Made by a program: the position numbers and the translations under genes. The notes below the pieces were generated by a model. That model worked only from the letters and a program-made list of their open reading frames with translations. It searched no databases and was not told the DNA's origin. Positions 5,318-53,994 of a stretch of DNA of 64,000 bases are shown here, piece by piece (the first letter of the stretch is position 1; the number at the start of each line of letters is the position of its first letter). This DNA is from a virus: UHGV virus genome UHGV-0293664; one strand, given 5' to 3'.

Positions 5318-6808
5318 GTGGCTAAGTATGGATTGACAGAGGCTGGTTTCGTTATACCAACCCTAAATGACCTAATCGTTGAAACTAAGCAAAGCCTGAT
5401 CCGTGCTTTTGGCGAAAACTTCAACGTACAGAGTAACTCCGTTGCAGATAAGCTGACCACTATCTTCAACGAGCGAGAGTATCAACTTATTCTTATGGCA
5501 GCATCTGTATACGCATCACAGACGCTGTATGGGGCAGAAGGTATTTACCTGGATGAGCTTCTTGGAAGACAAGGTATTTACCGAAGAGGCCGTTCTAAAT
5601 CATCAGGTACCTGCCAGTTGACAATCAACACAACTGTGCCGTACAATATGATTTACGATTCCAAAACTTACACACTGGACAGTGGGAACTTTGTTCTTAG
5701 CAATGACGTGCAGGTAGCGGGAAATCTTATTGCTCATAGGATAAACGCTCCAGATCTAAGAATTGGGAAATACAACTTTCAAATTACCAACCAGACAGAT
5801 GGAAGTATCAAAACAAAAAGTCTGGTTTTAACAGATAAGGCTCTGGACTCTTCTGATCTGCCAAGCTTTTACGGAGAGATTAAGCAGTTCATTGTCGATA
5901 ATACAACCCTGTTGAACGACGATTTGATTCAGATCGATATGTTGACAGGAACGTTGTGGATAGGGTACAATTCGAATCTTGATCAAGTTGGACTTAATAG
6001 TAGAGTAGATTTCAGGGTATCCCCGATTGTAGGGGAAAGAACTATTACCCTGGATGTTATCGCTAACGAGGCTGGTGAGCTGTCAAGAGAGGCAGAAACC
6101 GTGACAACAATGTCGCCTACTCCCAGCGGATTTATCAAACTCACCAACCGAGAAAGATTCAATGAGGGTAGGGATGTTGAGAAAGACTCAGAGTATCGCT
6201 TAAGAGCTTCCAGCACAAAACAGTTAACATCTAAGGCTACCCGTCCTGCAATCCTTAGCGCTGTAAGCGAGGTGAAAGGTGTTGAGAAAGTGAGAGTGTT
6301 CTCCAACAACACCGATAAAACTGATGCTAAAGGTATACCTCCTTACAAGTTCCAAGTGGTTGTGTTTGGTGGTGCAACGGAAGACATTTGCCAAGCACTT
6401 TACCAAACTATAGCCTGCACGAACAGGACTTATGGTAATATTTTCTACGATGTCACTACATCTGACGGTCAAACTGAAAGAATTTATTACTCCAAGGCAA
6501 ATACCTACCGCCTAGATGTAAGAATTACCTACTCCGGTGCTGCGCTTTCCACAACCGAAAAAGATGCCATTACAGAGGCCCTTTTGCATGTTGTTAACGG
6601 ACTAGATGTTGCAGATACGTTGTACAATATCCAATTGGTCGGTGCTGCATCTGCTGCTGTGTCGATAGGCAGATTTAATAGACTGGTAATTCAAGTTAAA
6701 CCAGTAGGAGCTTCTGATGAAGCTTACACTACAAACGATATTGTTGCGAACATGACCGAGGTGTTTGACCTCGACGAAAGTAATATAACTTTCCAACAAA
6801 CTATTTAA
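5318..6808 (+). CDS. Tail/baseplate structural protein
   Basis: 496 aa; GTG start with GGAGGAG RBS; located in tail module. Confidence 0.5.
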   Translation: MAKYGLTEAGFVIPTLNDLIVETKQSLIRAFGENFNVQSNSVADKLTTIFNEREYQLILMAASVYASQTLYGAEGIYLDELLGRQGIYRRGRSKSSGTCQLTINTTVPYNMIYDSKTYTLDSGNFVLSNDVQVAGNLIAHRINAPDLRIGKYNFQITNQTDGSIKTKSLVLTDKALDSSDLPSFYGEIKQFIVDNTTLLNDDLIQIDMLTGTLWIGYNSNLDQVGLNSRVDFRVSPIVGERTITLDVIANEAGELSREAETVTTMSPTPSGFIKLTNRERFNEGRDVEKDSEYRLRASSTKQLTSKATRPAILSAVSEVKGVEKVRVFSNNTDKTDAKGIPPYKFQVVVFGGATEDICQALYQTIACTNRTYGNIFYDVTTSDGQTERIYYSKANTYRLDVRITYSGAALSTTEKDAITEALLHVVNGLDVADTLYNIQLVGAASAAVSIGRFNRLVIQVKPVGASDEAYTTNDIVANMTEVFDLDESNITFQQTI

Positions 6809-34465: not shown

Positions 34466-35671
34466 ATGATTTTCATCTACGAACATTTCAAAACTCGTAA
34501 AGAAGCACGTGACCGCCGTGCAGAACTTGAGAAGAAGGGTTTCACATGTGCCATTGAGAAAGGTGATACAACCTGGACACTAGCAGTTGGTGCCCCAGAG
34601 CTGTTCGATCCTGACCGTGACAGCGTCTGCTACACCCGTGAGGATTTTGAAACCCGTGAAGAGGCCCGTTTATTTCGATATGGGCTGGAAGATAACGGTA
34701 AGTACGCCATGATCTTAGACTTAGGCGAAGGTTCCGTTAAACGTTGGGGCGTGGTATACCCACTGTGTGTTGTTCACGGTGTGGGGTTCACTGGTGTAGC
34801 AATCAAGTCAGAAGAACCTTTAGTAGAAGTCAAAGATCCGGTGCTGGAGGTGGTGAGCAGTGTGTCTCAGCAACAGACTCGAAGCATCGAGCCTTTGGTA
34901 GTTATTTGCGGAGAACTCCTCCAGATCACCTGCAACGAAGGCATTTTTGAAATTCGCCGCAGTGAAAGTGAGGAAGTTTACCAGAAAGTCTTTGACCATA
35001 TCTCTGTTCAGGAATATGACGAGGCAATTGGTGAAATCCTTGTCTGGCTGGAACGCAAGAATGAGTTCACCACACTTGCAGACAACTTGATCATGAAAGA
35101 TGGCAAGCTCTACTACTACGGCGTAGAGATGCGATCCACTATTGCAAAGAAAATTGAGAAAGACTATGCAGACGGAACATTGGATGACCGCTATGTGAAA
35201 TTCCTCGTTCGACTGCTACGCAATCCATCTGCAAAATCTGTAAACATGCTCTACGATTTTATGCAGGCCAATGATATTCAGATTGCAGAAGATGGTCGAA
35301 TCATTTGCTACAAAGGCGTTCAGTTTAACGGCAGCAAGTGGGTGGATTGGCACAGTGGTAAAGTCCCACAATACCAAGGTGCTTTTGTATCCATGCCTCG
35401 TAACTTTGTAGAGGATGATCCTGAAGCTGCGTGCTCCTATGGCTTACACTGCGCCAGCAAAGAGTATGCAAAGAGCTACGGCACTGTAATGACTGTTATG
35501 GTTGACCCTGCAGATGTGGTTAGTGTGCCATACCAACACAATAGCGCTAAGTGCCGTGCATGCCGCTATGAGATTGTGGTAGCTCCGGAAGCACGCAAGG
35601 ACGGCGACCCGATTGAATACGTGGTTGACCGAGACGGTAACACTATCGACATTCTTTACGAGGAGGCGTAA
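34466..35671 (+). CDS. Putative rIIB-like protein
   Basis: 401 aa directly downstream of rIIA-like gene; call is positional only. Confidence 0.35.
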   Translation: MIFIYEHFKTRKEARDRRAELEKKGFTCAIEKGDTTWTLAVGAPELFDPDRDSVCYTREDFETREEARLFRYGLEDNGKYAMILDLGEGSVKRWGVVYPLCVVHGVGFTGVAIKSEEPLVEVKDPVLEVVSSVSQQQTRSIEPLVVICGELLQITCNEGIFEIRRSESEEVYQKVFDHISVQEYDEAIGEILVWLERKNEFTTLADNLIMKDGKLYYYGVEMRSTIAKKIEKDYADGTLDDRYVKFLVRLLRNPSAKSVNMLYDFMQANDIQIAEDGRIICYKGVQFNGSKWVDWHSGKVPQYQGAFVSMPRNFVEDDPEAACSYGLHCASKEYAKSYGTVMTVMVDPADVVSVPYQHNSAKCRACRYEIVVAPEARKDGDPIEYVVDRDGNTIDILYEEA

Positions 35672-37041
35672 TGGAAAAAGGGCAGTATGATGTAGGCACA
35701 GATGCTGCCCTTGTTGCAATCATGAGCGGTGAGAATGTCTTCGTTTCAGGACCCGCAGGTTGTGGGAAGACGTACCTCATCAACATGATCCAGTCAATGT
35801 ATGGAGACTCTTGCATAACGGTTGCCCCGACAGGGGTAGCCGCTTTAAACGTTAATGGAGCAACAGCACACCGAACCTTCGATCTTGCAGCAGGTGTGAG
35901 CATGGAGTCAGACTGGACCGCAATAAGGGCAAAAACAGCAAAGCCTTTGAAAAGCAAGGCATTTACCATCCTAATTATCGATGAAATCTCTATGATCCGT
36001 GCTGATAAGTTTATAGAGATGGATAGGAAACTCCGCTTCCTTCGAAAAAATGACAAACCTTTCGGAGGCATACAGGTCATATTGTTTGGCGATTTTTACC
36101 AGGCACCTCCTGTTGTCTCTTCTATGGAGAAGGAGGCCTACTTCAACTTCTACCACACAGACCTATGTTGCTATACCGAATCTTGGAAAGAGCTTGACCT
36201 TCACAACATAGCCCTAATAGACCAGTTCCGACAGGAGTCTATTCGATTTGCCACAATGCTCAACTGTGTTCGTGAGGGTCGTCGCATAAAAGAGGTTGTA
36301 GCAGAACTTAATGCTCGCTGTTACAAAGGCGGTGTACCAACAGACGCTCTCACAATTTGCGCCACCAACAAACAAGCAGAGGAAGTGAACAGAAGGTTCT
36401 ATGATGCCATCAACGCCCCAGAGAAGGTATACACTGGTGAAATGAAGGGTAAGTTTCCCTCCACCCTGCCAGTGGAGCAGGAGATGAAGTTGAAAATTGG
36501 CATGAAAGTTATGATAACCGCCAACGATGTTGACCCGACGCACAAAGTACCTTATTATGTTAACGGAACACGTGCCACAATTGTTAAATTTAAGAACAAG
36601 GCGGTGGTGGTAGAGCTTGAAGATGGAACACAGGTTGACATAGAGCAGAGGTTGTGGGAGAATAACGAGTATAAGCCATCTCAGAGATACAACATTGCAG
36701 AAAGGAAGATGGAGAAGTTTATAGAGAGGGTAGTGATTGGGTCATACAAGCAACTTCCTCTGAAATCTGGGTACGCCGTAACATCTCATAAAAGTCAAGG
36801 ACTTACGTTAGATTGTTACAACCTAGACCTTGGAAAGAACGGAGCTTTCTCTCCTGGTATGACGTATGTTGCTTTGAGTAGAGTTAAGACAATACAAGGA
36901 ATAAACTTGTTGCGTCCACTAAGAGAGGTTGACATTATTGTTGACCCGCGAGTCGTAGAGTTTTACAATACAACATTCCCTGACTTAGACAAAATTGTCA
37001 GGAAAGATTTTGAAACCAGAGCAGAAGAGGGGGACGTATGA
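35671..37041 (+). CDS. Pif1/RecD/Dda-like SF1 DNA helicase
   Basis: Walker A GPAGCGKTY; ILIIDEISM; TSHKSQGLT; ALSRV motifs. Confidence 0.75.
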   Translation: MEKGQYDVGTDAALVAIMSGENVFVSGPAGCGKTYLINMIQSMYGDSCITVAPTGVAALNVNGATAHRTFDLAAGVSMESDWTAIRAKTAKPLKSKAFTILIIDEISMIRADKFIEMDRKLRFLRKNDKPFGGIQVILFGDFYQAPPVVSSMEKEAYFNFYHTDLCCYTESWKELDLHNIALIDQFRQESIRFATMLNCVREGRRIKEVVAELNARCYKGGVPTDALTICATNKQAEEVNRRFYDAINAPEKVYTGEMKGKFPSTLPVEQEMKLKIGMKVMITANDVDPTHKVPYYVNGTRATIVKFKNKAVVVELEDGTQVDIEQRLWENNEYKPSQRYNIAERKMEKFIERVVIGSYKQLPLKSGYAVTSHKSQGLTLDCYNLDLGKNGAFSPGMTYVALSRVKTIQGINLLRPLREVDIIVDPRVVEFYNTTFPDLDKIVRKDFETRAEEGDV

Positions 37042-38683: not shown

Positions 38684-39295
38684 TTGAAATTTATATACAA
38701 AGAACACTACCACAAAGGTGTTGTGTGGAGTCTATTTGACGGGTCTGGTGGTGCAGTCATTGACTGGGCAAAAGCTGGGTACCTGTGCCTGTGCTTTAAT
38801 GCAGAAGGTGCTGATCACGGCAGTTATGCAGAGGTGATCACCGATCATCCCAACATTCACTATGTTGATTATTGGATTGACCCATGGTTCCCTCAGGAAA
38901 CTTTTTGCATGTACCCAGCTCCAGACTTTATTCTTGCATTTCCTCCGTGCACGCATTTAGCGGTGTCAGGTGCTGCACATTTTAAGAAAAAGCTGGCTAA
39001 GGACCCCCTGATCCAAATTAATGCTGTAAAGGATGCTCGGGTTGCGGAAGAGCTGGGAGAGATTTACGATTGCCCGTGGCATGTAGAGAATCCTGTGGGT
39101 GTTATGTCCACACTGTGGCGCAAACCTGTCCCGCAAATAGTTGACGTGGTTAGCGGGTATTCCATGCAACACGCCAAGCTGGGTGGAAAGAGTGCAAGAA
39201 CGAAGATGATTCGAAGCCTCACACCACGTGGCTGGGCAAAAGCCGTATTCTTAGCAAACGAGCCTGTAGTAAGGAGCAGAATTAATGGGAAGTAA
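38684..39295 (+). CDS. Small C5-cytosine methyltransferase-like protein
   Basis: TTG start after AGGAGA; motif I LFDGSGG, motif IV-like FPPCT, motif VI-like HVENP; about 203 aa, no obvious target-recognition domain. Confidence 0.5.
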   Translation: MKFIYKEHYHKGVVWSLFDGSGGAVIDWAKAGYLCLCFNAEGADHGSYAEVITDHPNIHYVDYWIDPWFPQETFCMYPAPDFILAFPPCTHLAVSGAAHFKKKLAKDPLIQINAVKDARVAEELGEIYDCPWHVENPVGVMSTLWRKPVPQIVDVVSGYSMQHAKLGGKSARTKMIRSLTPRGWAKAVFLANEPVVRSRINGK

Positions 39296-41363
39296 ATTTA
39301 TGGCATCTGCATACAACCGTTTCGGCGAGCCAAACCCGAAAGCAACTAAGTATAAAAGTGGGGGAAGTGTGAAACGAGACTATCGTGATGAAAAAGAAGT
39401 TGAAACTGTAGAGACTGTTTTAGAAAATACTAAAATTGTCCCTGTCCCACAACAGAATATCGGTCTGATGGCTGCACAATATTTTGGTGTGCGATCAGCA
39501 TTGTCCCAAGAAGACGGTGTGACAGTCACTGCAACATATTTCCCATATTACGACCGCTACGGAAATCTGTCCGGTTTCAAAAAGCGTGACTGGACTATTC
39601 CTAAAGAGCAAAGGGGCCATTTCTCCGTTGTTGGCATCGTAAAGGCCAACTCCCAGATGTTTGGTCAAAAGCTGTGTGCATCTTCCAACAACCGTAAGCA
39701 GATCAACGTTTGTGAGGGAGAAGGTGATGTTATTGCAGCATGGCAGGCTGCATATCAGATACAAGTAAAAGGGATTCTCACCAATGCTAAAGCCCCGGCA
39801 AAGGTGAAGCAGTGGGCTAAAGAGGTCCAGGACGGGATCGATGCAGTTATCAACGGCGGTGATCTGGCAGGAAAACCCTGCCTGCCTTTTGTTGGAATTA
39901 ACTGTGGATGTGCAAACGCAGTAGATACTTTTGCAAACAATGAGAAGTTTATCCGTAGCTATGGAACAGTTGTGCTGGCAATGGATAACGATGCAGCTAA
40001 CGAGGTAGAGAAGCAAAAACACGTCATTAAAGGTGTTGAGGCCACGCACAATATCGCAGCATTTTTAATGGCTGATAACGTTTACCACGTAGAATACCCT
40101 GGTGAAGTAAACGACCCTGACGGTGTAAAAGATATCCGAGACATGCTGAAGGCTAAAAAGCTGGAAGATATTGTCAACATGTTCCGGCATCCTGTTAAAT
40201 ATGTGCCTGATGCTGTGTCGGATTTAGAAGACTTCTCTATCGAGTCTTTGCGGAAAAAGACTTCCAACGGGGTAGATATCAGTGCAGAGTTCCCAAAACT
40301 GCAAAAAATGCTAAAAGGCTTGCACAAAGGGACACTTGTAATGCTTACAGGTCCATCAGGCGGCGGTAAAACAACCGTGGCTAAAAAACTGGAACACTGT
40401 ATTGCAAGATACCTAATGGACCCGACATGCCAGAAGGCTGATGACTATGAAGAGGATGATCGTCTATGTATGATCCATCTTGAGGAGGACCCAGAGGAAG
40501 CAATTAACTCCTTGTATGCAAACCAGTTAGGGTTTGATGTTAAAGAGTTTGTTGAAGATCCTAGCCAGTTTTTAACTGATCAAGAACACGCAGAGATTCA
40601 CCAATCATGGGCAAAAGCTGGAAAAATCAAAGTGTTCAAACATTTCGGATCTATTCCGGTGGACGAGTTGATTACCAAGCTTAAGCAAATGGTTTGCCTG
40701 TACCATTGCCGTTATATTGTGCTGGATCACCTGTCCATGGTAATTTCAGGGCTTAATGTTAAGGATGAGCGAAAAGAACTGGACATGGCTATGACTCAGC
40801 TGGCTGCGTTTTGTAAGCAGTTTAACGTGTTTATCTTGGTGATCGCTCACCTCAAACGTACAGAGATTGTGCCTCCTAAGGACAAGGATGGTAACCCGTT
40901 ACCTTTCTGGTATCCTGTGCGAAAAGAGAATTTGCGAGGATCGGCGGGGCTTGAACAGTTGAGTTGGGTAGTCATAGGTGTCGAGGCCGAAGAAATGGTG
41001 GATCGTTCTCGTGGACGTGTCCGTCTGGTAGGTCTTAAAAACCGTCCAGCAAAAACTCTAGGTATTGCTGACACTTTGGTTATGGACCCGCACACAGGTA
41101 AGTTCCATGATGCCAGTAATTGGTACTGGGACAAAGAAATGCAAATGTTTACAGACGGAGAAGGTGGGGAGGTTGTTTGGAGACCTCAGGCTATGTTTGA
41201 GGATCAGGAGCATGCAGTTGTAGAAACACCTATGGGCAAGGTTGTGGCTGATAAGGTTGTAACTCCTACTGTTAAGTCTGTTGACACGCAGGAAGACCTC
41301 CAGTACGATGATCCATCCTCTGACCCGGTCCCCGGTTTTGAGGATGATGAAACGCCTTTTTAA
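39285..41363 (+). CDS. Primase-helicase (TOPRIM plus DnaB-like)
   Basis: CEGEGD and AMDNDAANE TOPRIM-like; Walker A GPSGGGKTT; acidic C-terminus EDDETPF. Confidence 0.75.
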   Translation: MGSKFMASAYNRFGEPNPKATKYKSGGSVKRDYRDEKEVETVETVLENTKIVPVPQQNIGLMAAQYFGVRSALSQEDGVTVTATYFPYYDRYGNLSGFKKRDWTIPKEQRGHFSVVGIVKANSQMFGQKLCASSNNRKQINVCEGEGDVIAAWQAAYQIQVKGILTNAKAPAKVKQWAKEVQDGIDAVINGGDLAGKPCLPFVGINCGCANAVDTFANNEKFIRSYGTVVLAMDNDAANEVEKQKHVIKGVEATHNIAAFLMADNVYHVEYPGEVNDPDGVKDIRDMLKAKKLEDIVNMFRHPVKYVPDAVSDLEDFSIESLRKKTSNGVDISAEFPKLQKMLKGLHKGTLVMLTGPSGGGKTTVAKKLEHCIARYLMDPTCQKADDYEEDDRLCMIHLEEDPEEAINSLYANQLGFDVKEFVEDPSQFLTDQEHAEIHQSWAKAGKIKVFKHFGSIPVDELITKLKQMVCLYHCRYIVLDHLSMVISGLNVKDERKELDMAMTQLAAFCKQFNVFILVIAHLKRTEIVPPKDKDGNPLPFWYPVRKENLRGSAGLEQLSWVVIGVEAEEMVDRSRGRVRLVGLKNRPAKTLGIADTLVMDPHTGKFHDASNWYWDKEMQMFTDGEGGEVVWRPQAMFEDQEHAVVETPMGKVVADKVVTPTVKSVDTQEDLQYDDPSSDPVPGFEDDETPF

Positions 41364-41421: not shown

Positions 41422-42156
41422 ATGAACGAGTTCAGAGATCACTGTGTAGCCAATCACTTGTGGTCAGAGATATTGGAGTATGACGGTCAAAATCTTTTTT
41501 GGAAGATAGACATTCTGGCAGGTAGCGGTGTAGGATATGTTAAAACTTCAGCAGGCTCTAGAGCTGACAAGGGGCAAGATGCTGATGGCAGGCCTGTGGT
41601 CAGTCTAGGAAAGCATTGCACTAAAGGTGCCCACGTCATAATTTGGGAAATGTTTAACGGTCCTGTACCGGAAGGGTATGAGGTTGACCACATCAAGGAG
41701 ATAAGAGAAACAGGTGGTGTGGCTGATAACAGTATTCAAAATTTGCAACTGCTCGAGCCTACAGATAACAAAAAGAAAAGTTGCAAGATACCTCGTAGTA
41801 ACAACAAGTCTGGTAGGGTCGGGGTGCACTATTCTGAAGAAAGAGAGGCATGGATAGCTCAAGGCACAGATTCTGCAGGTGAAAGAGTCTGGCTAGGCCA
41901 GTACAGAACTTTTGAAGAGGCAGAGTGGGCAAGAAAGTTCTTCGAAGATAATGGTTTTTCGCACAAGAGTGGAAGAGCCGTGCAGTATAATAACACCAGC
42001 GGTTGCTCAGGGGTGAATTGGGATAAAACCCATGAAAGATGGGTAGCCAGAATTTATGTAGATGGTAAAAGGAAATGCCTTGGGTATTTCAAGAACAGAG
42101 AAGATGCAATAGCTGCAAGAAAGAGTGCTGAGAAGAAACAGGAGGAGACAGTATGA
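41422..42156 (+). CDS. HNH homing endonuclease with AP2 DNA-binding domains
   Basis: EVDHIKEIRETGGVADNSIQNLQLL HNH motif; two AP2-like repeats; inserted between primase-helicase and polymerase. Confidence 0.7.
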   Translation: MNEFRDHCVANHLWSEILEYDGQNLFWKIDILAGSGVGYVKTSAGSRADKGQDADGRPVVSLGKHCTKGAHVIIWEMFNGPVPEGYEVDHIKEIRETGGVADNSIQNLQLLEPTDNKKKSCKIPRSNNKSGRVGVHYSEEREAWIAQGTDSAGERVWLGQYRTFEEAEWARKFFEDNGFSHKSGRAVQYNNTSGCSGVNWDKTHERWVARIYVDGKRKCLGYFKNREDAIAARKSAEKKQEETV

Positions 42157-44930
42157 GTAATTGGTGCTTCGACTTGGAGGCCTCCGGGCTTTTGGAAGAC
42201 CCAGATCTTTATTATCACTGCGGTCTGTTTAAAGAGCTGAATAAGAACCGTTTTATGCTGTTCCTTCCTCTAAATGACCGCACACACTACTCCGAGGAGG
42301 ATATAGAGAAGGCTAAGAACTTTATTCTGGCAAAGAAAACTCTTTATAAAGATTTTGAAGTTCGCATAGCAGATTTTTCGGAGTTGGAAGGTTGGCTTAC
42401 AGGCAATTCCGACTGGTCACCAACAGCTTTGAACTGCCATAACTGCTACAGTTATGACTTTATGCTAATGGAAAGATTGTCCGGTATTCATTTTGATATG
42501 TTCCGTGATCCTAAATGCATGGGGACTATCAACGACCACCAGGTTAACCTGTTTGATACGTTGGCGATGAGCCGAATCTTGTGGCCTGATCGCCCTTTAC
42601 CAAAAGGTTGTCCGGACTCTGTATTCAACCCGGTTACTAAGAAAATGCAGCCTGTTGGTCCTCACGGCCTTATGGCATGGGGCTACGCCCTTGGTAACCA
42701 GAAAGTTCAAATTGATGACTGGCGTGATCTTCCGTTGTGGAAGTATGTGGATCGTGTATTCGAGGACGTTATCATCCAAGAGCTGCTCTGGAAAGAGCTG
42801 GTAGCGGAATCAAAAGGTGTATTCTACGGCAAATCTGACATGCAGAACTTTATGTACGATCCTGCCAAAGAGAAGCCGAAAGGGTTCAAGAAGATCACCT
42901 GGAAGAACGCATTACGCCGAGGCATGCTGCAGCACTTCCTGATGGAGCTGCAGGCCCGTCAGGGTGTGTATTTCGACATAGATGGAGCTATTGCTTTACG
43001 TGACCGTTGCGATGCGTGGATGAAAGAGATCGCTGATCGTGTTGAACCTCAACTTCCTTTAAAAGAGTTGTCAATGTCTCAGCGGCCCAAGTTCCCTGAA
43101 AAGCCGTTTAACCAAGATGGGACAATCTCCAATAATGGTTGGAAATGGTTAAAAGATAAGCTTGGCTATCCTGTGGACATGAGCGCTTTAGAGTTCAAAG
43201 CCCCGCCTAAGCGAGCATTTACCTCCACAGGGGATGTCAGTAAGATGGGGATAAAGTGGTGTGAAGAGATGGGCTGCAAAGACCCAGATAAGATGGCTGA
43301 TTTCTTGAGAGGCTATATTAAGGGCACCTCCACACCACAACCTTTACCTAAAGAGCTAATGGATCAGGCAATAAGTGATCTACAGCAGAAGCGAATGCCG
43401 GACTGCAAGATACCTATGAAAATCAGCAATCAGGACGACATTAAGAGATACCTGATCAGTGCTGGTTGGCTTCCGACAATGTGGAGAACTAAGGATGTAA
43501 CTAAAGACAGCAAGAAGAAAGCTCTACCTGATGCAGATGTTGATGCACGAGTGTATGCATATATGGACGAGCTTTTAGAGTCAGAGTATTGTGACCTAAT
43601 TATCAACTTCTGGAACAAAACTGATGCTAAGTTCCAGACAACCGTGCACAAGTTCCGAAGCTTTCCTAACTCTGAAAGGATTAAAAAGGAAGTATTCGGG
43701 AAAATACGTAGAAAAGCTAGGACACTTATTACTTCTCCGCAGCTGAAAGATACGTTTGGACACCTATGCCCGAATCTTGAAAAATTGAACGGGGAGATGG
43801 CTAAAGATATCGTCTTGTGGTTATCATTGCGAAACCGCAGATCGGTCCTTGATCCAATCAAGGAGGATAAGGTTGATACTGGTCTTCTTAATCACCCACG
43901 TTTGAAGATTGACCATAAGCTTCCGGCTAAAAGCTCTGGATTAACAAACACTTCCAGACAGAAACACAGTATTTGTGCAAACATGCCTAAACCATCTCCT
44001 AAAGTGGTTATGGGTAAAGAGATGCGCAGTCTGTGGGGTGTTCCTCCAGGATACTTTGAGATCGGTATTGACGGGTCCAACTTAGAGCAGCTTATCGGGG
44101 CTTGGGGTGCCTTTGAGTTCGACAACGGCTTGTATTATGATGTTGTAAGTAACGGGGACGCACACCAAAACAATGCTGAGGCATATACAAAAGTAGCAGG
44201 CAGAGAGGTGTCTCGTAACGACGGTAAACCTATCACGTATGGGGTTATGTATGGGGCACAAAAAGACAAAGTTGCAGACATGCTGGATATCTCCCCAGAG
44301 TTGGGACAAAGGGTAATCGATGCACTTTGGGATGCCAACCCCGGTCTTAAGGGGCGTAAAGAAGATCTGGAGAAATTCTGGGAAGCAACGGGTAAGAAGT
44401 TTATCTACTCTTTTGATGGTCATGCTATCTGGACCCGATCTAAACACTCTTTACTTAATGCATACCAACAGAATGGTGGTGCATCGTTGTGTGACTTAGT
44501 TGGGATACTCATGCACCACCAAATGGTGAAGCGCGGGTGGTACGATGAAGGTGTTCGTCGTATTATTTATTACCATGACGAATATCAGCTTCAAGTCCCT
44601 GACACACCTAAGTATAAGACTGTGTACACCTTCGACACAATTGAAGAACTGGAAGCATTTAAGGCAGAGCAGGAGGCCAAACTTCATGTGTTCGACGGTC
44701 ATAAGTACAAAAAGGCACGCAAGGATGAGGACGGAAACGAAGTGGTTGACAGAGACGGAAACACGGTGTACGATCCTATCCTGAACGATGACGGAAAGCT
44801 TGAACTTATCTGGAGCCCTGTGGGTGAAATGGTGGTGCATTGCTTCTGGCAAGCTTCTAAAATGATGGGAGTCCCGTTCCAGATCACAGGTGAATACTTG
44901 TGCGGTCGTAATTGGGGTGATTGTCACTAA
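42153..44930 (+). CDS. Family A DNA polymerase with 3'-5' exonuclease domain
   Basis: Exo I FDLEASG; K...YGVMYG motif B-like; YYHDE motif C-like. Confidence 0.8.
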   Translation: MSNWCFDLEASGLLEDPDLYYHCGLFKELNKNRFMLFLPLNDRTHYSEEDIEKAKNFILAKKTLYKDFEVRIADFSELEGWLTGNSDWSPTALNCHNCYSYDFMLMERLSGIHFDMFRDPKCMGTINDHQVNLFDTLAMSRILWPDRPLPKGCPDSVFNPVTKKMQPVGPHGLMAWGYALGNQKVQIDDWRDLPLWKYVDRVFEDVIIQELLWKELVAESKGVFYGKSDMQNFMYDPAKEKPKGFKKITWKNALRRGMLQHFLMELQARQGVYFDIDGAIALRDRCDAWMKEIADRVEPQLPLKELSMSQRPKFPEKPFNQDGTISNNGWKWLKDKLGYPVDMSALEFKAPPKRAFTSTGDVSKMGIKWCEEMGCKDPDKMADFLRGYIKGTSTPQPLPKELMDQAISDLQQKRMPDCKIPMKISNQDDIKRYLISAGWLPTMWRTKDVTKDSKKKALPDADVDARVYAYMDELLESEYCDLIINFWNKTDAKFQTTVHKFRSFPNSERIKKEVFGKIRRKARTLITSPQLKDTFGHLCPNLEKLNGEMAKDIVLWLSLRNRRSVLDPIKEDKVDTGLLNHPRLKIDHKLPAKSSGLTNTSRQKHSICANMPKPSPKVVMGKEMRSLWGVPPGYFEIGIDGSNLEQLIGAWGAFEFDNGLYYDVVSNGDAHQNNAEAYTKVAGREVSRNDGKPITYGVMYGAQKDKVADMLDISPELGQRVIDALWDANPGLKGRKEDLEKFWEATGKKFIYSFDGHAIWTRSKHSLLNAYQQNGGASLCDLVGILMHHQMVKRGWYDEGVRRIIYYHDEYQLQVPDTPKYKTVYTFDTIEELEAFKAEQEAKLHVFDGHKYKKARKDEDGNEVVDRDGNTVYDPILNDDGKLELIWSPVGEMVVHCFWQASKMMGVPFQITGEYLCGRNWGDCH

Positions 44931-45689: not shown

Positions 45690-46061
45690 ATGTTAGTAAA
45701 AGGTACTCACACAGTCAAACAGCGTATTGAAGTTGAGATTGATGATTGTGAGCTGAAGCATATTCTACGGTCATGCTCCAACGTTTTGCTCCTTGGTATT
45801 CTCCAGGAGCGAGCGGAGAACGAGTTCTTAAATGCATTGGCAGGCCGCCCTGGTGACTTCTGTGTGCGTAAGCGTGGTGACAACAAGTCATGGCTGTGGG
45901 AGATAGACGCAGAATGGGATTACCACAAAAATGAGGGTATAGATGAGCCTATTCGTGAATTGACAGACAAAGAGATTCAGATGTACAATGAAGTTTGTCA
46001 TTGGGCAAGACGTCAACAAATTTACCTCGACCCTGTGTGGATGATTGAAAATAGCCATTGA
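45690..46061 (+). CDS. Hypothetical protein
   Basis: 123 aa from ATG 45690 with GAGGAGG RBS. Confidence 0.5.
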   Translation: MLVKGTHTVKQRIEVEIDDCELKHILRSCSNVLLLGILQERAENEFLNALAGRPGDFCVRKRGDNKSWLWEIDAEWDYHKNEGIDEPIRELTDKEIQMYNEVCHWARRQQIYLDPVWMIENSH

Positions 46062-50176: not shown

Positions 50177-50602
50177 ATGACCTATGAAATGCCAAAACTG
50201 ATTCGTGACGATGCCCAAAACGCCCACACCTTTATCATGGGCAAACGCATGGATATTATTTGTCATAAAGATTTCTGGGAAGGAAGTTACTTCACAGAGT
50301 ATTTTGGTAAACTGGACAATGGTCTGCTGATCCAGTTCTACACCGATGCGGAAAACAACATTCACTGGGAGTTCGAAACTGAAGATATCCATAAACTTTT
50401 CACCTTCCTCGGTATTAAGGTTGAGGCCAAGTTTGAAGAAGGTGAGTGCGACGATTGTGGATTCTATGAGGTAACAGATTTCTATCTCCCGAGTGGTGAG
50501 AACCTTTACTATGAAAGCCACTTCGGTAACTCCAATATGCCACAGTGCTGGACTGAGTTTTTTGAAATTGCGGAAGAGGAGCTGGCATACCGTGATTATT
50601 GA
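50177..50602 (+). CDS. Hypothetical protein
   Basis: 141 aa; GGAG RBS. Confidence 0.5.
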   Translation: MTYEMPKLIRDDAQNAHTFIMGKRMDIICHKDFWEGSYFTEYFGKLDNGLLIQFYTDAENNIHWEFETEDIHKLFTFLGIKVEAKFEEGECDDCGFYEVTDFYLPSGENLYYESHFGNSNMPQCWTEFFEIAEEELAYRDY

Positions 50603-51050
50603 TACTGTAGAGGGGGATTTAATCTCCCTTTTTAAGAGCGGTGCTGGTCACCTGATCCACGGTTGCAACTGCTTCCACACAATGGGCAAGGGGATAGCAA
50701 AACAGATCGCCCGTGAGTTCCCTCAAGCACTGGCAGCTGACAAAGAGACCAGACATGGTTGCCTAAGTAAACTGGGCGCGTTCTCAAGATGGGAGCACTT
50801 ATCTCCGATAGGTATTGTCTACGGAATAAATCTGTATACTCAGTTCTACCCAGGGCCTAATGCTGAATATTTCTCAATCCTGAAAGGCTTTGAGCGAGTC
50901 AATGAGGTATTCGAGGGATCGACTTTACCATTCTACATCCCTAAGATCGGGTGCGGCATAGGCGGTTTGAAGTGGGAACACGTAGAGGACGTTATTAACC
51001 TTGCCACTTTCGACATAGATATTGTCGTGGTGGAGTACAAAAAGTGTTGA
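50592..51050 (+). CDS. Macro-domain (ADP-ribose binding/processing) protein
   Basis: GTG start after GAGGAG; GAGHLIHGCNCFHTMGKGIAKQI and IGCGIGG resemble macro-domain glycine-rich motifs. Confidence 0.5.
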   Translation: MIIDTVEGDLISLFKSGAGHLIHGCNCFHTMGKGIAKQIAREFPQALAADKETRHGCLSKLGAFSRWEHLSPIGIVYGINLYTQFYPGPNAEYFSILKGFERVNEVFEGSTLPFYIPKIGCGIGGLKWEHVEDVINLATFDIDIVVVEYKKC

Positions 51051-52551: not shown

Positions 52552-52880
52552 CAGAGATCATCGTTTCAACTGCAGGGTATGTATTCCTGACAATCATTGC
52601 GTTGGCTATTCTGGTGGCGGTGTATGGATTTGTTATCCTGCCTATTCTTGAGACATTTAGTTTGTGTCGGTGTTGGAGAAAAGCTTACGGACCACAACCG
52701 TGGAAAGACTGGTTCCATTTGGTGCGTATAGCGTTCTCTTATGCCTATGACCACTCTAGCAGTGCATGCGTAACTGGGTACCATGCCTACAACTGGAACT
52801 GGGAAGGGCTGGGGAGATGGACTGTTACAAAAACTATACCCTTACGGTTGTACAAAGGAAAGAACACACTGGGAGCCTGA
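52548..52880 (+). CDS. Small membrane protein
   Basis: 110 aa; two N-terminal hydrophobic helices; ATGA overlap. Confidence 0.5.
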   Translation: MTEIIVSTAGYVFLTIIALAILVAVYGFVILPILETFSLCRCWRKAYGPQPWKDWFHLVRIAFSYAYDHSSSACVTGYHAYNWNWEGLGRWTVTKTIPLRLYKGKNTLGA

Positions 52881-52909
52881 TATTTTAAGTTATCAGGTTG
52901 CCAGAGATC

Positions 52910-52945
52910 AGGAGGATTTCTAAAATGGATTTCCTCCTTTTGATA
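52910..52945 (+). terminator. Possible terminator at operon end
   Basis: AGGAGGA...TCCTCCT stem with 15-nt loop then TTTTG. Confidence 0.35.
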
Positions 52946-53191
52946 TTTTACCTGCCAGGATATTTTAAAATCCTTAGAAAATCAGAAAATGGATCGAAAA
53001 CTAAAATGGATTTTTCAGGGCAGGCACGACGAGATGAACCACTCATCCTGTCGTTTGCACCATATTCCAGACCACCATTACAGATTTCCCGCACATGCTT
53101 ACATCCTTCTACTGGAACTTCCTCCGCTTGCCCTTGACCTTTTATGGTAATAATCCAACCACTATCTTGAAGTTGCGATGCAGCTTTTCAG

Positions 53192-53354
53192 GTACTCGAT
53201 CTGTTTTTCGTTTCAAAGATTGAATTTTCTGAAAATTTTTCTCGATAAATTTCTCAGTACTCGATCTGTTTTTCGTTTTCTGAATCGGATTTTCTGGAAA
53301 TCGTTCCGGCTCTCGACCTGAAATTTTTGGGGACGAAATCGATTTTTCGTTTTC
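53192..53354. repeat. Iteron-like direct repeats, three copies
   Basis: Repeat unit TCGATYTKTTTTTCGTTTTC at 53192-53214, 53257-53280 and 53334-53354 in AT-rich non-coding DNA. Confidence 0.7.
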
Positions 53355-53481
53355 AGAAATGGATTTTTAAAATTTCTATATGGGAATATTTTATGGGATA
53401 CTGTTTTATAGGAAATTGTTACGGAGGGTAATTAGCGTGCTAATTAAATTTATGAAATGCGAGGAGTTCTCATTTAGAATT

Positions 53482-53500
53482 TTGAATGATAATCATTCTC
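53482..53500. promoter_or_regulatory. Fur-box-like palindrome A
   Basis: TTGAATGATAATCATTCTC matches 15 of 19 positions of the E. coli Fur consensus; contains perfect palindrome GAATGAT-A-ATCATTC. Confidence 0.4.
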
Positions 53501-53514
53501 GTTTGCAGAATAAC

Positions 53515-53538
53515 GGGCACCCCCGGTGATTGTCTCCC
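53515..53538. repeat. GC-rich conserved element, copy 1
   Basis: GGGCACCCCCGGTGATTGTCTCCC; related copies at 53655 and, inverted, 62331. Confidence 0.6.
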
Positions 53539-53617
53539 GGCCCCTGTTGCCCCGGCTTGTTATTATAGTATCACACAGGACAAAGAAAGCAAGGACTTTT
53601 TGCATAAATTTTTAGAC

Positions 53618-53636
53618 GATAATGATAATCGTTCTC
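53618..53636. promoter_or_regulatory. Fur-box-like palindrome B
   Basis: GATAATGATAATCGTTCTC matches 17 of 19 positions of the Fur consensus. Confidence 0.5.
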
Positions 53637-53654
53637 ATTTCATGCAGCGCCCAT

Positions 53655-53692
53655 CCCCGGTGGTTGTCTCCCCCGTCACCGGTGCCTGCCGT
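53655..53692. repeat. GC-rich conserved element, copy 2
   Basis: CCCCGGTGGTTGTCTCCCCCGTCACCGGTGCCTGCCGT; reverse complement of 62331-62378 is near-identical. Confidence 0.6.
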
Positions 53693-53844
53693 CCTTTCGA
53701 TATGTATATTGTGCCACCTGGCGGGGCCGCTGTCAACACTTTTCAAAAAATTTTTCTAACCTGATGCGCTAACCGTTGCAACCTGGCGGGGCCAGCCTGG
53801 CAGGTCCGCGTTATAAAGTAAACAGCTACGGAAGAGGTACAAAA

Positions 53845-53994
53845 ATGAAAGGTAATGCTACTCGCCTGGAAAATGTAGTAATTGATGATACGGAAGCTAT
53901 CGCCCTGGTCGAGAAGGTTGAAACGGAAGCGCGGGAACATAAAGAAGAGTACGAAAAAATGGTAGTTAACCTGGCGGGGGCGATTCTATCATAA
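53845..53994 (+). CDS. Small hypothetical protein
   Basis: 49 aa from ATG 53845 with GAAGAGG RBS; first gene after the non-coding island. Confidence 0.4.
   Translation: MKGNATRLENVVIDDTEAIALVEKVETEAREHKEEYEKMVVNLAGAILS

Follow-up and report, generated by a model that had tools for sequence, protein, structure and literature searches.

The window analyzed here is a stretch of 64,000 nucleotides (64 kb) of the virus genome UHGV-0293664, which belongs to a strictly lytic, rV5-like coliphage (Vequintavirus). Our subject is an island of ∼960 nucleotides (nt) at positions 52881-53844, the phage's one large stretch of non-coding DNA, to which no strand is assigned and in which consistent gene calls are absent. 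The island contains two palindromes that resemble operators of the host metalloregulator Fur (Fur boxes A and B) and two GC-rich segments (units A and B), each coupled to one of the boxes. The genuine genes that surround it are all encoded on the plus strand, and annotators of related phages called between zero and eight small open reading frames (ORFs) within it. In the genome paper of rV5, the island is drawn as a "non-coding" box without further comment (PMC3606486). The region shares 90-94% identity with many rV5-like coliphages. A blastn search of 5,426 E. coli genomes returned no match, indicating that the region was not copied recently from the host. A scan for tRNA and tmRNA genes found none.

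Both boxes had been noticed in an earlier reading of the bare sequence (the original prediction), which placed two Fur-like 19-mers at 53482-53500 (TTGAATGATAATCATTCTC) and 53618-53636 (GATAATGATAATCGTTCTC), with 15 of 19 and 17 of 19 matches to the classical consensus GATAATGATAATCATTATC. These positions and counts were reproduced. In its true-dyad register, box A occupies 53485-53503 (AATGATAATCATTCTCGTT); box B occupies 53621-53639 (AATGATAATCGTTCTCATT), and neither carries a strand. Each box is a single mismatch away from the 19-bp palindrome AATGAKAATNATTMTCATT, from which the next best 19-mers of the 64 kb deviate at four or more positions. The 7-1-7 core, searched with up to two mismatches, gave six matches against 1.25 expected, boxes A and B being the only two with one mismatch. 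For the classical 19-mer, shuffled sequences predict 0.01 matches.

The boxes were scored with a Fur matrix that we obtained by an unsupervised search for palindromic 19-mers in 12 Fur-target promoter regions of E. coli K-12 MG1655 (fepA-fes, fepD-entS, fepB-entC, fhuA, fecI, fecA, cirA, fiu, tonB, exbB, feoA, and ryhB), with no phage input. The consensus of this matrix is AATGATAATAATTATCATT. Box A reaches 25.2 bits and box B, the best site of the window, 25.5 bits, compared with 11.7-24.4 bits for the 12 host sites (leave-one-out, median 19.0). No other position in the window attains 18 bits, and only four positions in 164 kb of E. coli DNA attain 22 bits. Given these values, the box scores are clearly not below genomic background, the outcome that the original prediction had named as speaking against Fur.

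Both boxes are accompanied by a weaker register 6 bp to the left, which scores 11.4 bits at box A (53479-53497) and 16.0 bits at box B (53615-53633), where the two overlapping registers together yield the classical 19-mer GATAATGATAATCGTTCTC. Overlapping 6-bp registers are the layout reported for clusters of Fur sites (PMC2189734). At box A, the outer hexamer TTGAAT (53482-87) and the 3′ flank produce a cluster of the F-F-x-R-R type. A degenerate third box (53456-53474, no strand, AATGCGAGGAGTTCTCATT, 12.5 bits), which is a remnant of the box array found in relatives, lies exactly 29 bp left of box A.

The palindrome of the phages is also used by bacteria. When one genome per species was scanned for the exact palindrome of the relatives, AATGAGAATNATTCTCATT, it was found in at least 120 bacterial loci from many phyla. 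Among the loci listed, the genes that it immediately precedes include fur, feoA, and genes for TonB receptors and iron transporters. The commonest Pfam families in the 150 first flanking ORFs of these loci were iron-type solute-binding proteins (9), FUR (8), and the TonB-receptor Plug domain (8), with FeoA (7), ECF sigma factors (5), ZnuA (4), and FTR1 (3) also present; FUR, Plug, and FeoA were all absent from 148 control ORFs located >2 kb away from the same loci. Within E. coli, the ryhB operator (AATAATAATCATTCTCATT) is identical to the phage consensus at 18 of 19 positions, and the fhuA operator (TATAATAATCATTCTCGTT) to box A at 17 of 19. In matrix score, 6-bp clustering, and iron-regulon context alike, the boxes behave at the level of sequence as members of the Fur-operator class, and we consider it very probable that palindromes A and B are operators for host Fur. 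A Fur homologue is not recognizable in any Vequintavirinae record; a phage-encoded Fur was therefore rejected, and binding would fall to the host protein.

Downstream of each box lies the GC-rich element to which the original prediction had coupled it. The two cores, CGGTGATTGTCTCCC (53524-53538) and CGGTGGTTGTCTCCC (53658-53672), are present where it had placed them, 20 and 18 nt past the boxes by our count, and belong to a 21-nt direct repeat (family D6) with 90% identity. Unit A (53506-53556, no strand) consists of (CA)GAATAACGGGCA at 53506-53519, a variable 5-nt spacer at 53520-53524, and GGTGATTGTCTCC at 53525-53537. Its consensus reads GAAT-RR-C-R-GGCA, five variable bases, and GGTG-W-TTGTCTC, at a fixed distance from the box. 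A short GC hairpin follows these blocks (CCGG at 53538-41 with CCGG at 53553-56). Unit B (53640-53700, no strand) is a paralogue of unit A that carries GGTGGTTGTCTCC at 53659-53671 and in which CCGGTG (53657-62) could form a stem with CACCGG (53677-82). In alignments, its location matches a conserved "block B" of other genera, and it is invariant in eight Vequintavirus genomes with the exception of phita32. The spacing between box and unit is fixed in all genera, which upholds the proposed coupling.

An ORF at 53486-53764 spans both elements and had been suspected of not being coding. Indeed, it is truncated to 53 amino acids in phita32 and to 7 in MiataMamis, its C terminus shifts frame in other relatives, and substitutions are spread evenly over the three codon positions (13/14/16, p = 0.85). 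On the grounds of the truncations and the even substitutions, we rejected a coding reading.

The element is conserved far beyond the rV5-like coliphages. In distant blastn searches, the box and the ∼45 GC-rich nt after it kept 80-90% identity in Seunavirus, Mydovirus, Certrevirus, Henunavirus, and Serratia phages, compared with ∼70% in Phapecoctavirus. Box A is present in all relatives and unit A in every genus of the Vequintavirinae. The element of each relative is located in an extensive non-coding gap, and the sequences that flank this gap cannot be aligned. Box B is conserved within Vequintavirus, where positions 53440-53740 are almost invariant and the sequence to their right is full of substitutions and indels. 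The relatives carry one to four boxes of 18-27 bits at an exact spacing of 29 bp: arrays of two to four boxes, 29 bp from start to start, occur in EC152, KpS8, CR3, CB7, phiTE, Kashira, and anhysbys (six genera), and single boxes in PVP-SE1 and Hena1. The 29-bp arrays depart from the contiguous 6-bp phasing that is usual in host Fur clusters.

The box-unit module also occurs outside the subfamily, in non-coding DNA of Phapecoctavirus, of a jumbo phage, and of an otherwise unrelated contig. The criteria of our first scan of viral sequences and of the scan of metagenomes proved too permissive: most hits were due to chance, and ∼12 were true new copies. Two jumbo-phage contigs (L025 and L287, 347 and 410 kb) carry two copies of box plus unit in inverted, divergent orientation ∼45 bp apart; each unit is directed away from its own box, and each copy is faced by an inward-pointing TATAAT. 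On a jumbo-phage contig, a convergent gene has its terminator immediately next to one of the copies. In the phage-like contig L270 (OCVR010000615.1, 29.6 kb), a 55-nt module at 5350-5409 is the sole nucleotide similarity to any GenBank phage, and this contig holds two clusters of Fur-type sites ∼1.1 kb apart. A metagenome contig of 5132 nt (L362) ends exactly in the variable 5-nt spacer behind GGGCA, with an inverted 17-nt copy of 53198-53214 attached at this point; its other end carries a similar inverted 20-mer, and the arrangement is probably an assembler artefact. Finally, 16-17 records titled "Campylobacter phage" (host given as C. jejuni) are 90-97% identical to the region, and their host labels look doubtful.

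Each unit is faced by a leftward promoter of the sigma-70 type, a feature that, like the 29-bp arrays of the relatives, was not part of the original prediction. On the minus strand, the promoter facing unit A was read from the sequence at 53565-53592 (TTGCTT, 16 nt, TG-a-TACTAT; start at ∼53558), and the one facing unit B was returned by a promoter scan at 53708-53736 (TTGACA, 17 nt, CACAAT preceded by TG; start at ∼53701). Leftward promoters occupy the same aligned positions in four genera, represented by the window, CR3, PVP-SE1, and Hena1. Those facing the unit A homologue are TTGCAA-17-TATATT in CR3, TTGATC-16-TATTAT in PVP-SE1, and TTGACC-17-GATAAT in Hena1; those facing block B are TTGACG-17-CATAAT, TTGCAA-17-TATAGT, and TTGACA-18-TATTCT, respectively.

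The candidates for Fur-repressed promoters point in the opposite direction and overlap the boxes. At unit B, the hexamer TTGCAT that the original prediction had named as a plausible -35 element was confirmed in the sequence; it is followed after 18 nt by GATAAT, with the Fur site over the -10 element (53600-53629, plus strand, start at ∼53636), and the arrangement is conserved in Vequintavirus. The corresponding candidate at unit A is TTGAAT, 18 nt, CAGAAT (53482-53511, plus strand, start at ∼53518), and a promoter scan offered ATGAAA-17-TAGAAT (53452-53480, plus strand) as an alternative. The hexamers TTGAAT and ATTTGC are both better explained as outer Fur hexamers of an F-F-x-R-R cluster than as a -35 element. 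A sigma-54 reading of GGGCAC-N5-GTG was rejected by eye because the -12 GC is missing.

We propose that each box is the regulatory end of a directional cassette, composed of a Fur box cluster, ∼45 nt of GC-rich sequence, and a sigma-70 promoter aimed back at the box. Judged from sequence, transcription of the attached cassette, in either direction, is likely to be gated by host Fur and thereby by iron; that Fur does so by shutting the rightward promoters overlapping the boxes is a plausible version that we hold tentatively. In an iron-replete host, dimers of Fe2+-Fur would fill the boxes, using the overlapping 6-bp registers and, in relatives, the 29-bp arrays. Bound Fur would shut the weak rightward promoters (TTGCAT-18-GATAAT at unit B and TTGAAT-18-CAGAAT at unit A) and would also stand in the path of the leftward transcripts. 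Upon iron starvation, Fur would leave, and short GC-rich non-coding transcripts would start from ∼53518 and ∼53636. These would be antisense to the 5′ ends of the leftward transcripts from ∼53558 and ∼53701, so that the balance of convergent transcription across the island would change with iron. Our data establish operator quality, conservation, coupling of box and unit, the non-coding status of the region, and the conserved leftward promoters; Fur occupancy, the identity of the controlled promoter, the existence and role of the RNAs, and the benefit to the phage are inferred. Fur operators in a lytic phage would suggest that the phage reads or manipulates the iron status of its host.

Several observations weigh against the rightward scheme and its RNA product. 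The rightward promoters match the consensus at only 8 of 12 positions, which for unit B was too low to pass the cutoff of the promoter scan. In the -10 element of unit A, the second base is A, G, or T depending on the lineage (the key A is lost in six lineages by one count, and G or T stands there in ∼12 by another), which makes the assignment of a rightward promoter to unit A weak, and TTGAAT may simply be the outer Fur hexamer. In genera other than Vequintavirus, the second unit comes without a Fur box. No intrinsic (Rho-independent) terminator follows unit A or unit B in the window; a weak terminator-like site follows block B of PVP-SE1. Our literature search found no transcript map of the island. 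For unit A, support for a structured RNA came neither from RNAalifold (-3.2 kcal/mol, no consensus structure) nor from single-sequence folds, whose energies are ordinary (z = +0.8 to -2.0), nor from a comparison of plus- and minus-strand fold energies across lineages, in which neither strand folds better. Hints from wobble pairs conflict: stems in block B of Hena1 and in record L048 have G.U pairs on the plus strand only, whereas two substitutions in unit B of phita32 are tolerated only on the minus strand. By eye, a 4-bp GC stem just past GTCTC changes in sequence and keeps its pairing in five lineages. Rfam returned no match at the gathering score or at E up to 10 for the window, nor at E up to 1 for six relatives. 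The original prediction therefore stands for the Fur-type sites (which matrix score, bacterial genomic context, and cross-genus conservation place at the highest quality), for their coupling to the GC-rich element, for the non-coding nature of the ORF, and for the -35/-10 pair of unit B; its suggestion of a small RNA found no support in Rfam match, terminator, consensus fold, or strand preference.

Could the palindromes serve something other than Fur-gated transcription? Phage DNA is AT-rich and short palindromes are common in it, and the boxes might be chance palindromes or the functionless relic of a duplication. This we regard as the least probable explanation, effectively refuted by conservation: the element keeps 80-90% identity across genera amid flanks that do not align and is near-invariant in Vequintavirus, and the expectation from shuffles and the restriction of sites of at least 18 bits to two in 64 kb point the same way. 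Next comes a phage protein (an early regulator, a replication initiator, or the small terminase) that would bind the palindromes in a nucleoprotein complex, the likeness to Fur sites being convergence or mimicry. The regular 29-bp arrays near other repeat families do resemble the layouts of iterons and packaging sites, and function is not known for most genes of such phages. However, a phage-specific pair of protein and site would be expected to drift, whereas, in phages of seven host genera as well as in unrelated phage lineages, the host matrix fits the phage sites better than host sites at each informative position, and the exact sequence serves as a Fur-regulon operator across bacteria; we find this explanation quite improbable. 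Somewhat less improbable, but still doubtful, is that the sites act as decoys, titrating host Fur from the hundreds of copies of a replicating phage genome as in the Fur titration assay, so that derepressed host iron uptake feeds iron-dependent phage enzymes without any control of a phage promoter. The strength of the sites, equal to the best host operators, and the arrays of up to four in relatives would suit such a role. One virulent phage of Pseudomonas is reported to cause strong induction of its host's genes for siderophore and heme uptake, by a route that is unknown (PMC5563952). A decoy, however, needs neither the fixed unit spacing nor the directional coupling that are kept even in inverted copies, and several genera, among them those of PVP-SE1 and Hena1, have a single box. 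Fur is an abundant protein, and one to four sites per genome would for this reason make a weak sponge.

Leftward control is a stronger competitor of the rightward scheme, although we still consider it unlikely. The minus strand of unit A reads GAGACA (in TTGTCTC)-18-TATTCT (in AGAATA), with a start on the box. Fur would occlude this promoter and block the stronger leftward promoter upstream, thereby gating transcription into the repeat-rich segment 52881-53480, which could be a transcription-activated origin or a packaging site. Much of the local architecture fits: the leftward promoters are the best sigma-70 matches of the region and keep their position in four genera, the variable 5-nt block of unit A would be the promoter spacer between fixed flanking blocks, and the two substitutions in phita32 unit B preserve pairing on the minus strand only. 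The left half of the island holds strand-specific repeat families that are conserved across genera, and the island adjoins the replication gene module. Repeat families, a G+C content of 32% at 53200-53500, and leftward promoters aimed into them make up a layout that an iteron-type or transcription-activated origin may have. On the other hand, GAGACA-18-TATTCT matches the consensus at only 8 of 12 positions, the last T of its -10 element is C or A in ∼12 lineages, and unit B is without that -10 element; the candidate promoters that overlap the boxes are in this respect alike on both strands, each having 8 of 12 matches and one non-conserved key position. Repression from +57 to +75 is, moreover, not the usual mode of Fur. 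Consensus sites for DnaA (TTWTNCACA) and IHF (WATCAANNNNTTR) are absent from 52850-53900. The authors of the rV5 genome paper saw skew changes only where the direction of transcription changes, and none here (PMC3606486).

The replication genes, assigned with Pfam, lie upstream and encode a PIF1-type helicase (35671-37041), a DnaB-type primase-helicase (39285-41363), and a family A DNA polymerase (42153-44930); the island is situated ∼8 kb downstream of them. Downstream of the island follow small early-type genes, each with a strong promoter of its own. Just upstream of the island, a small ORF at 50493-51050 has a weak match to the Macro domain that spans no more than 32 residues (E = 3e-6). 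The left half of the island (52881-53480, G+C ∼32%) is densely occupied by repeat families found on the plus strand only. These comprise a 50-nt module in three copies spaced by 65 and 74 nt (53192-53380), GATATTT in three copies (52879, 52942, and 52959), and AAATGGWTTT in three copies (52923, 53004, and 53357). Other genera have repeats of similar kinds, and the left-half repeats might be an origin, a packaging site, or sites for a regulator. To the right of unit B, CCTGGCGGGG(CC) recurs as (T/A)ACCTGGCGGGGCC at 53717-53726, 53782-53791, and 53970-53979; one copy lies within the small ORF 53845-53994, and a CTGGC/GCCAG hairpin is possible.

Two further candidates for the function of the island were rejected. 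Some GenBank records start within it: L004, L138 (Salmonella phage R7), and L005 (Enterobacter phage EC152) have their first base 69 and 254 nt left of the Fur box, and the annotation of R7 includes 80-bp "attL/attR" repeats at both ends, which are probably an assembly overlap and not true termini. That these starts mark a genome terminus or packaging site is improbable; they are probably an assembly convention, because circular permutation is found in phiTE and PVP-SE1 and the records do not agree on where they begin. A link to ToxI or pseudo-ToxI, suggested by the resemblance of GGTGATTTGCTACC to GGTGATTGTCTCC, was dismissed because the escape locus of phiTE lies elsewhere. The island adjoins the homologues of phiTE_078/079, and a 36-nt tandem repeat such as that of the phiTE escape locus was not found in it.

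The phage sites resemble the Fur operators of E. coli ryhB and fhuA in having the same 19-bp inverted repeat, overlapping 6-bp registers (PMC2189734), and overlap with -10-like hexamers. They differ from them in their location in the non-coding island of a strictly lytic genome without an iron gene downstream, in their tie to a conserved GC-rich element and an opposing promoter, and in the 29-bp arrays of the relatives. In layout, the tandem units with a Fur box directly upstream of a short non-coding segment recall PrrF1/PrrF2 of Pseudomonas and RyhB of enterobacteria; in contrast to these, the phage units have no sequence or covariance-model match to them or to any Rfam family, no Rho-independent terminator, and no supported structure. 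In unit A of PVP-SE1, 12 nt (TTGTCTCGCGAT) are identical to E. coli ryhB from -7 to +5, at 46013-46024 of the E. coli record L390 (p ∼0.001 from shuffles, the phage copies not being independent). The hairpin that follows begins with GCGA and ends with UCGC in both. The 12-nt identity may go back remotely to a ryhB-like ancestor, or it may have arisen by chance, and we treat it as a lead only.

On phage DNA, Fur control has precedents. The stx1 gene of Shiga-toxin phages is Fur-regulated. A Fur box also belongs to sitABCD of lambdoid coliphages and prophages (PMC6969025). In these cases, as would apply here, a host Fur box on phage DNA links a phage-borne function to the iron status of the host; they differ in that stx1 and sitABCD are accessory protein-coding genes expressed from prophages, whereas the boxes described here lie in a core, subfamily-wide non-coding control region of a virulent phage. 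For the face-to-face promoters over a short conserved segment, ColE1 RNA I/RNA II and pR/pL of coliphage 186 offer an analogy, not a homology: starts ∼40-65 bp apart would give transcripts with complementary 5′ ends. Here, one side would be gated by a host metalloregulator, and neither side has an identified replication primer, toxin, or repressor gene.

Fur boxes as such are well-known regulatory elements. To our knowledge, they have been known on phage DNA only in front of accessory genes of temperate phages (stx1 and sitABCD), and we found no literature that links rV5-like phages with Fur. The virulent phages studied here have sites that equal the best host operators fixed in their conserved non-coding control region, and such phages, among them rV5, PVP-SE1, CR3, phiTE, and the KpS8-type Klebsiella phages, are widely used for therapy and biocontrol. 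If Fur binds, a phage would be expected to behave differently in iron-rich broth than in the gut, in serum, or in plant tissue, where iron is scarce; this would bear on how well efficacy in the laboratory predicts efficacy in the host. Binding would also offer an easy experimental entry into a ∼1-kb island to which genome papers give no more than the label "non-coding," and it might be a mechanism by which some lytic phages come to switch on host iron-uptake genes, as has been reported. More speculatively, and on balance doubtfully, the cassette may be a portable "iron sensor," carried by a whole subfamily of enterobacterial phages, all strictly lytic, and by two or more unrelated phage lineages, in which Fur operators in the main control region of the genome would be wired to a non-coding RNA switch with convergent promoters. 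If so, it would tune early development or origin firing to the iron of the host, or drain Fur to raise iron import, and would be the first input of a host metalloregulator into the core program of virulent phages.

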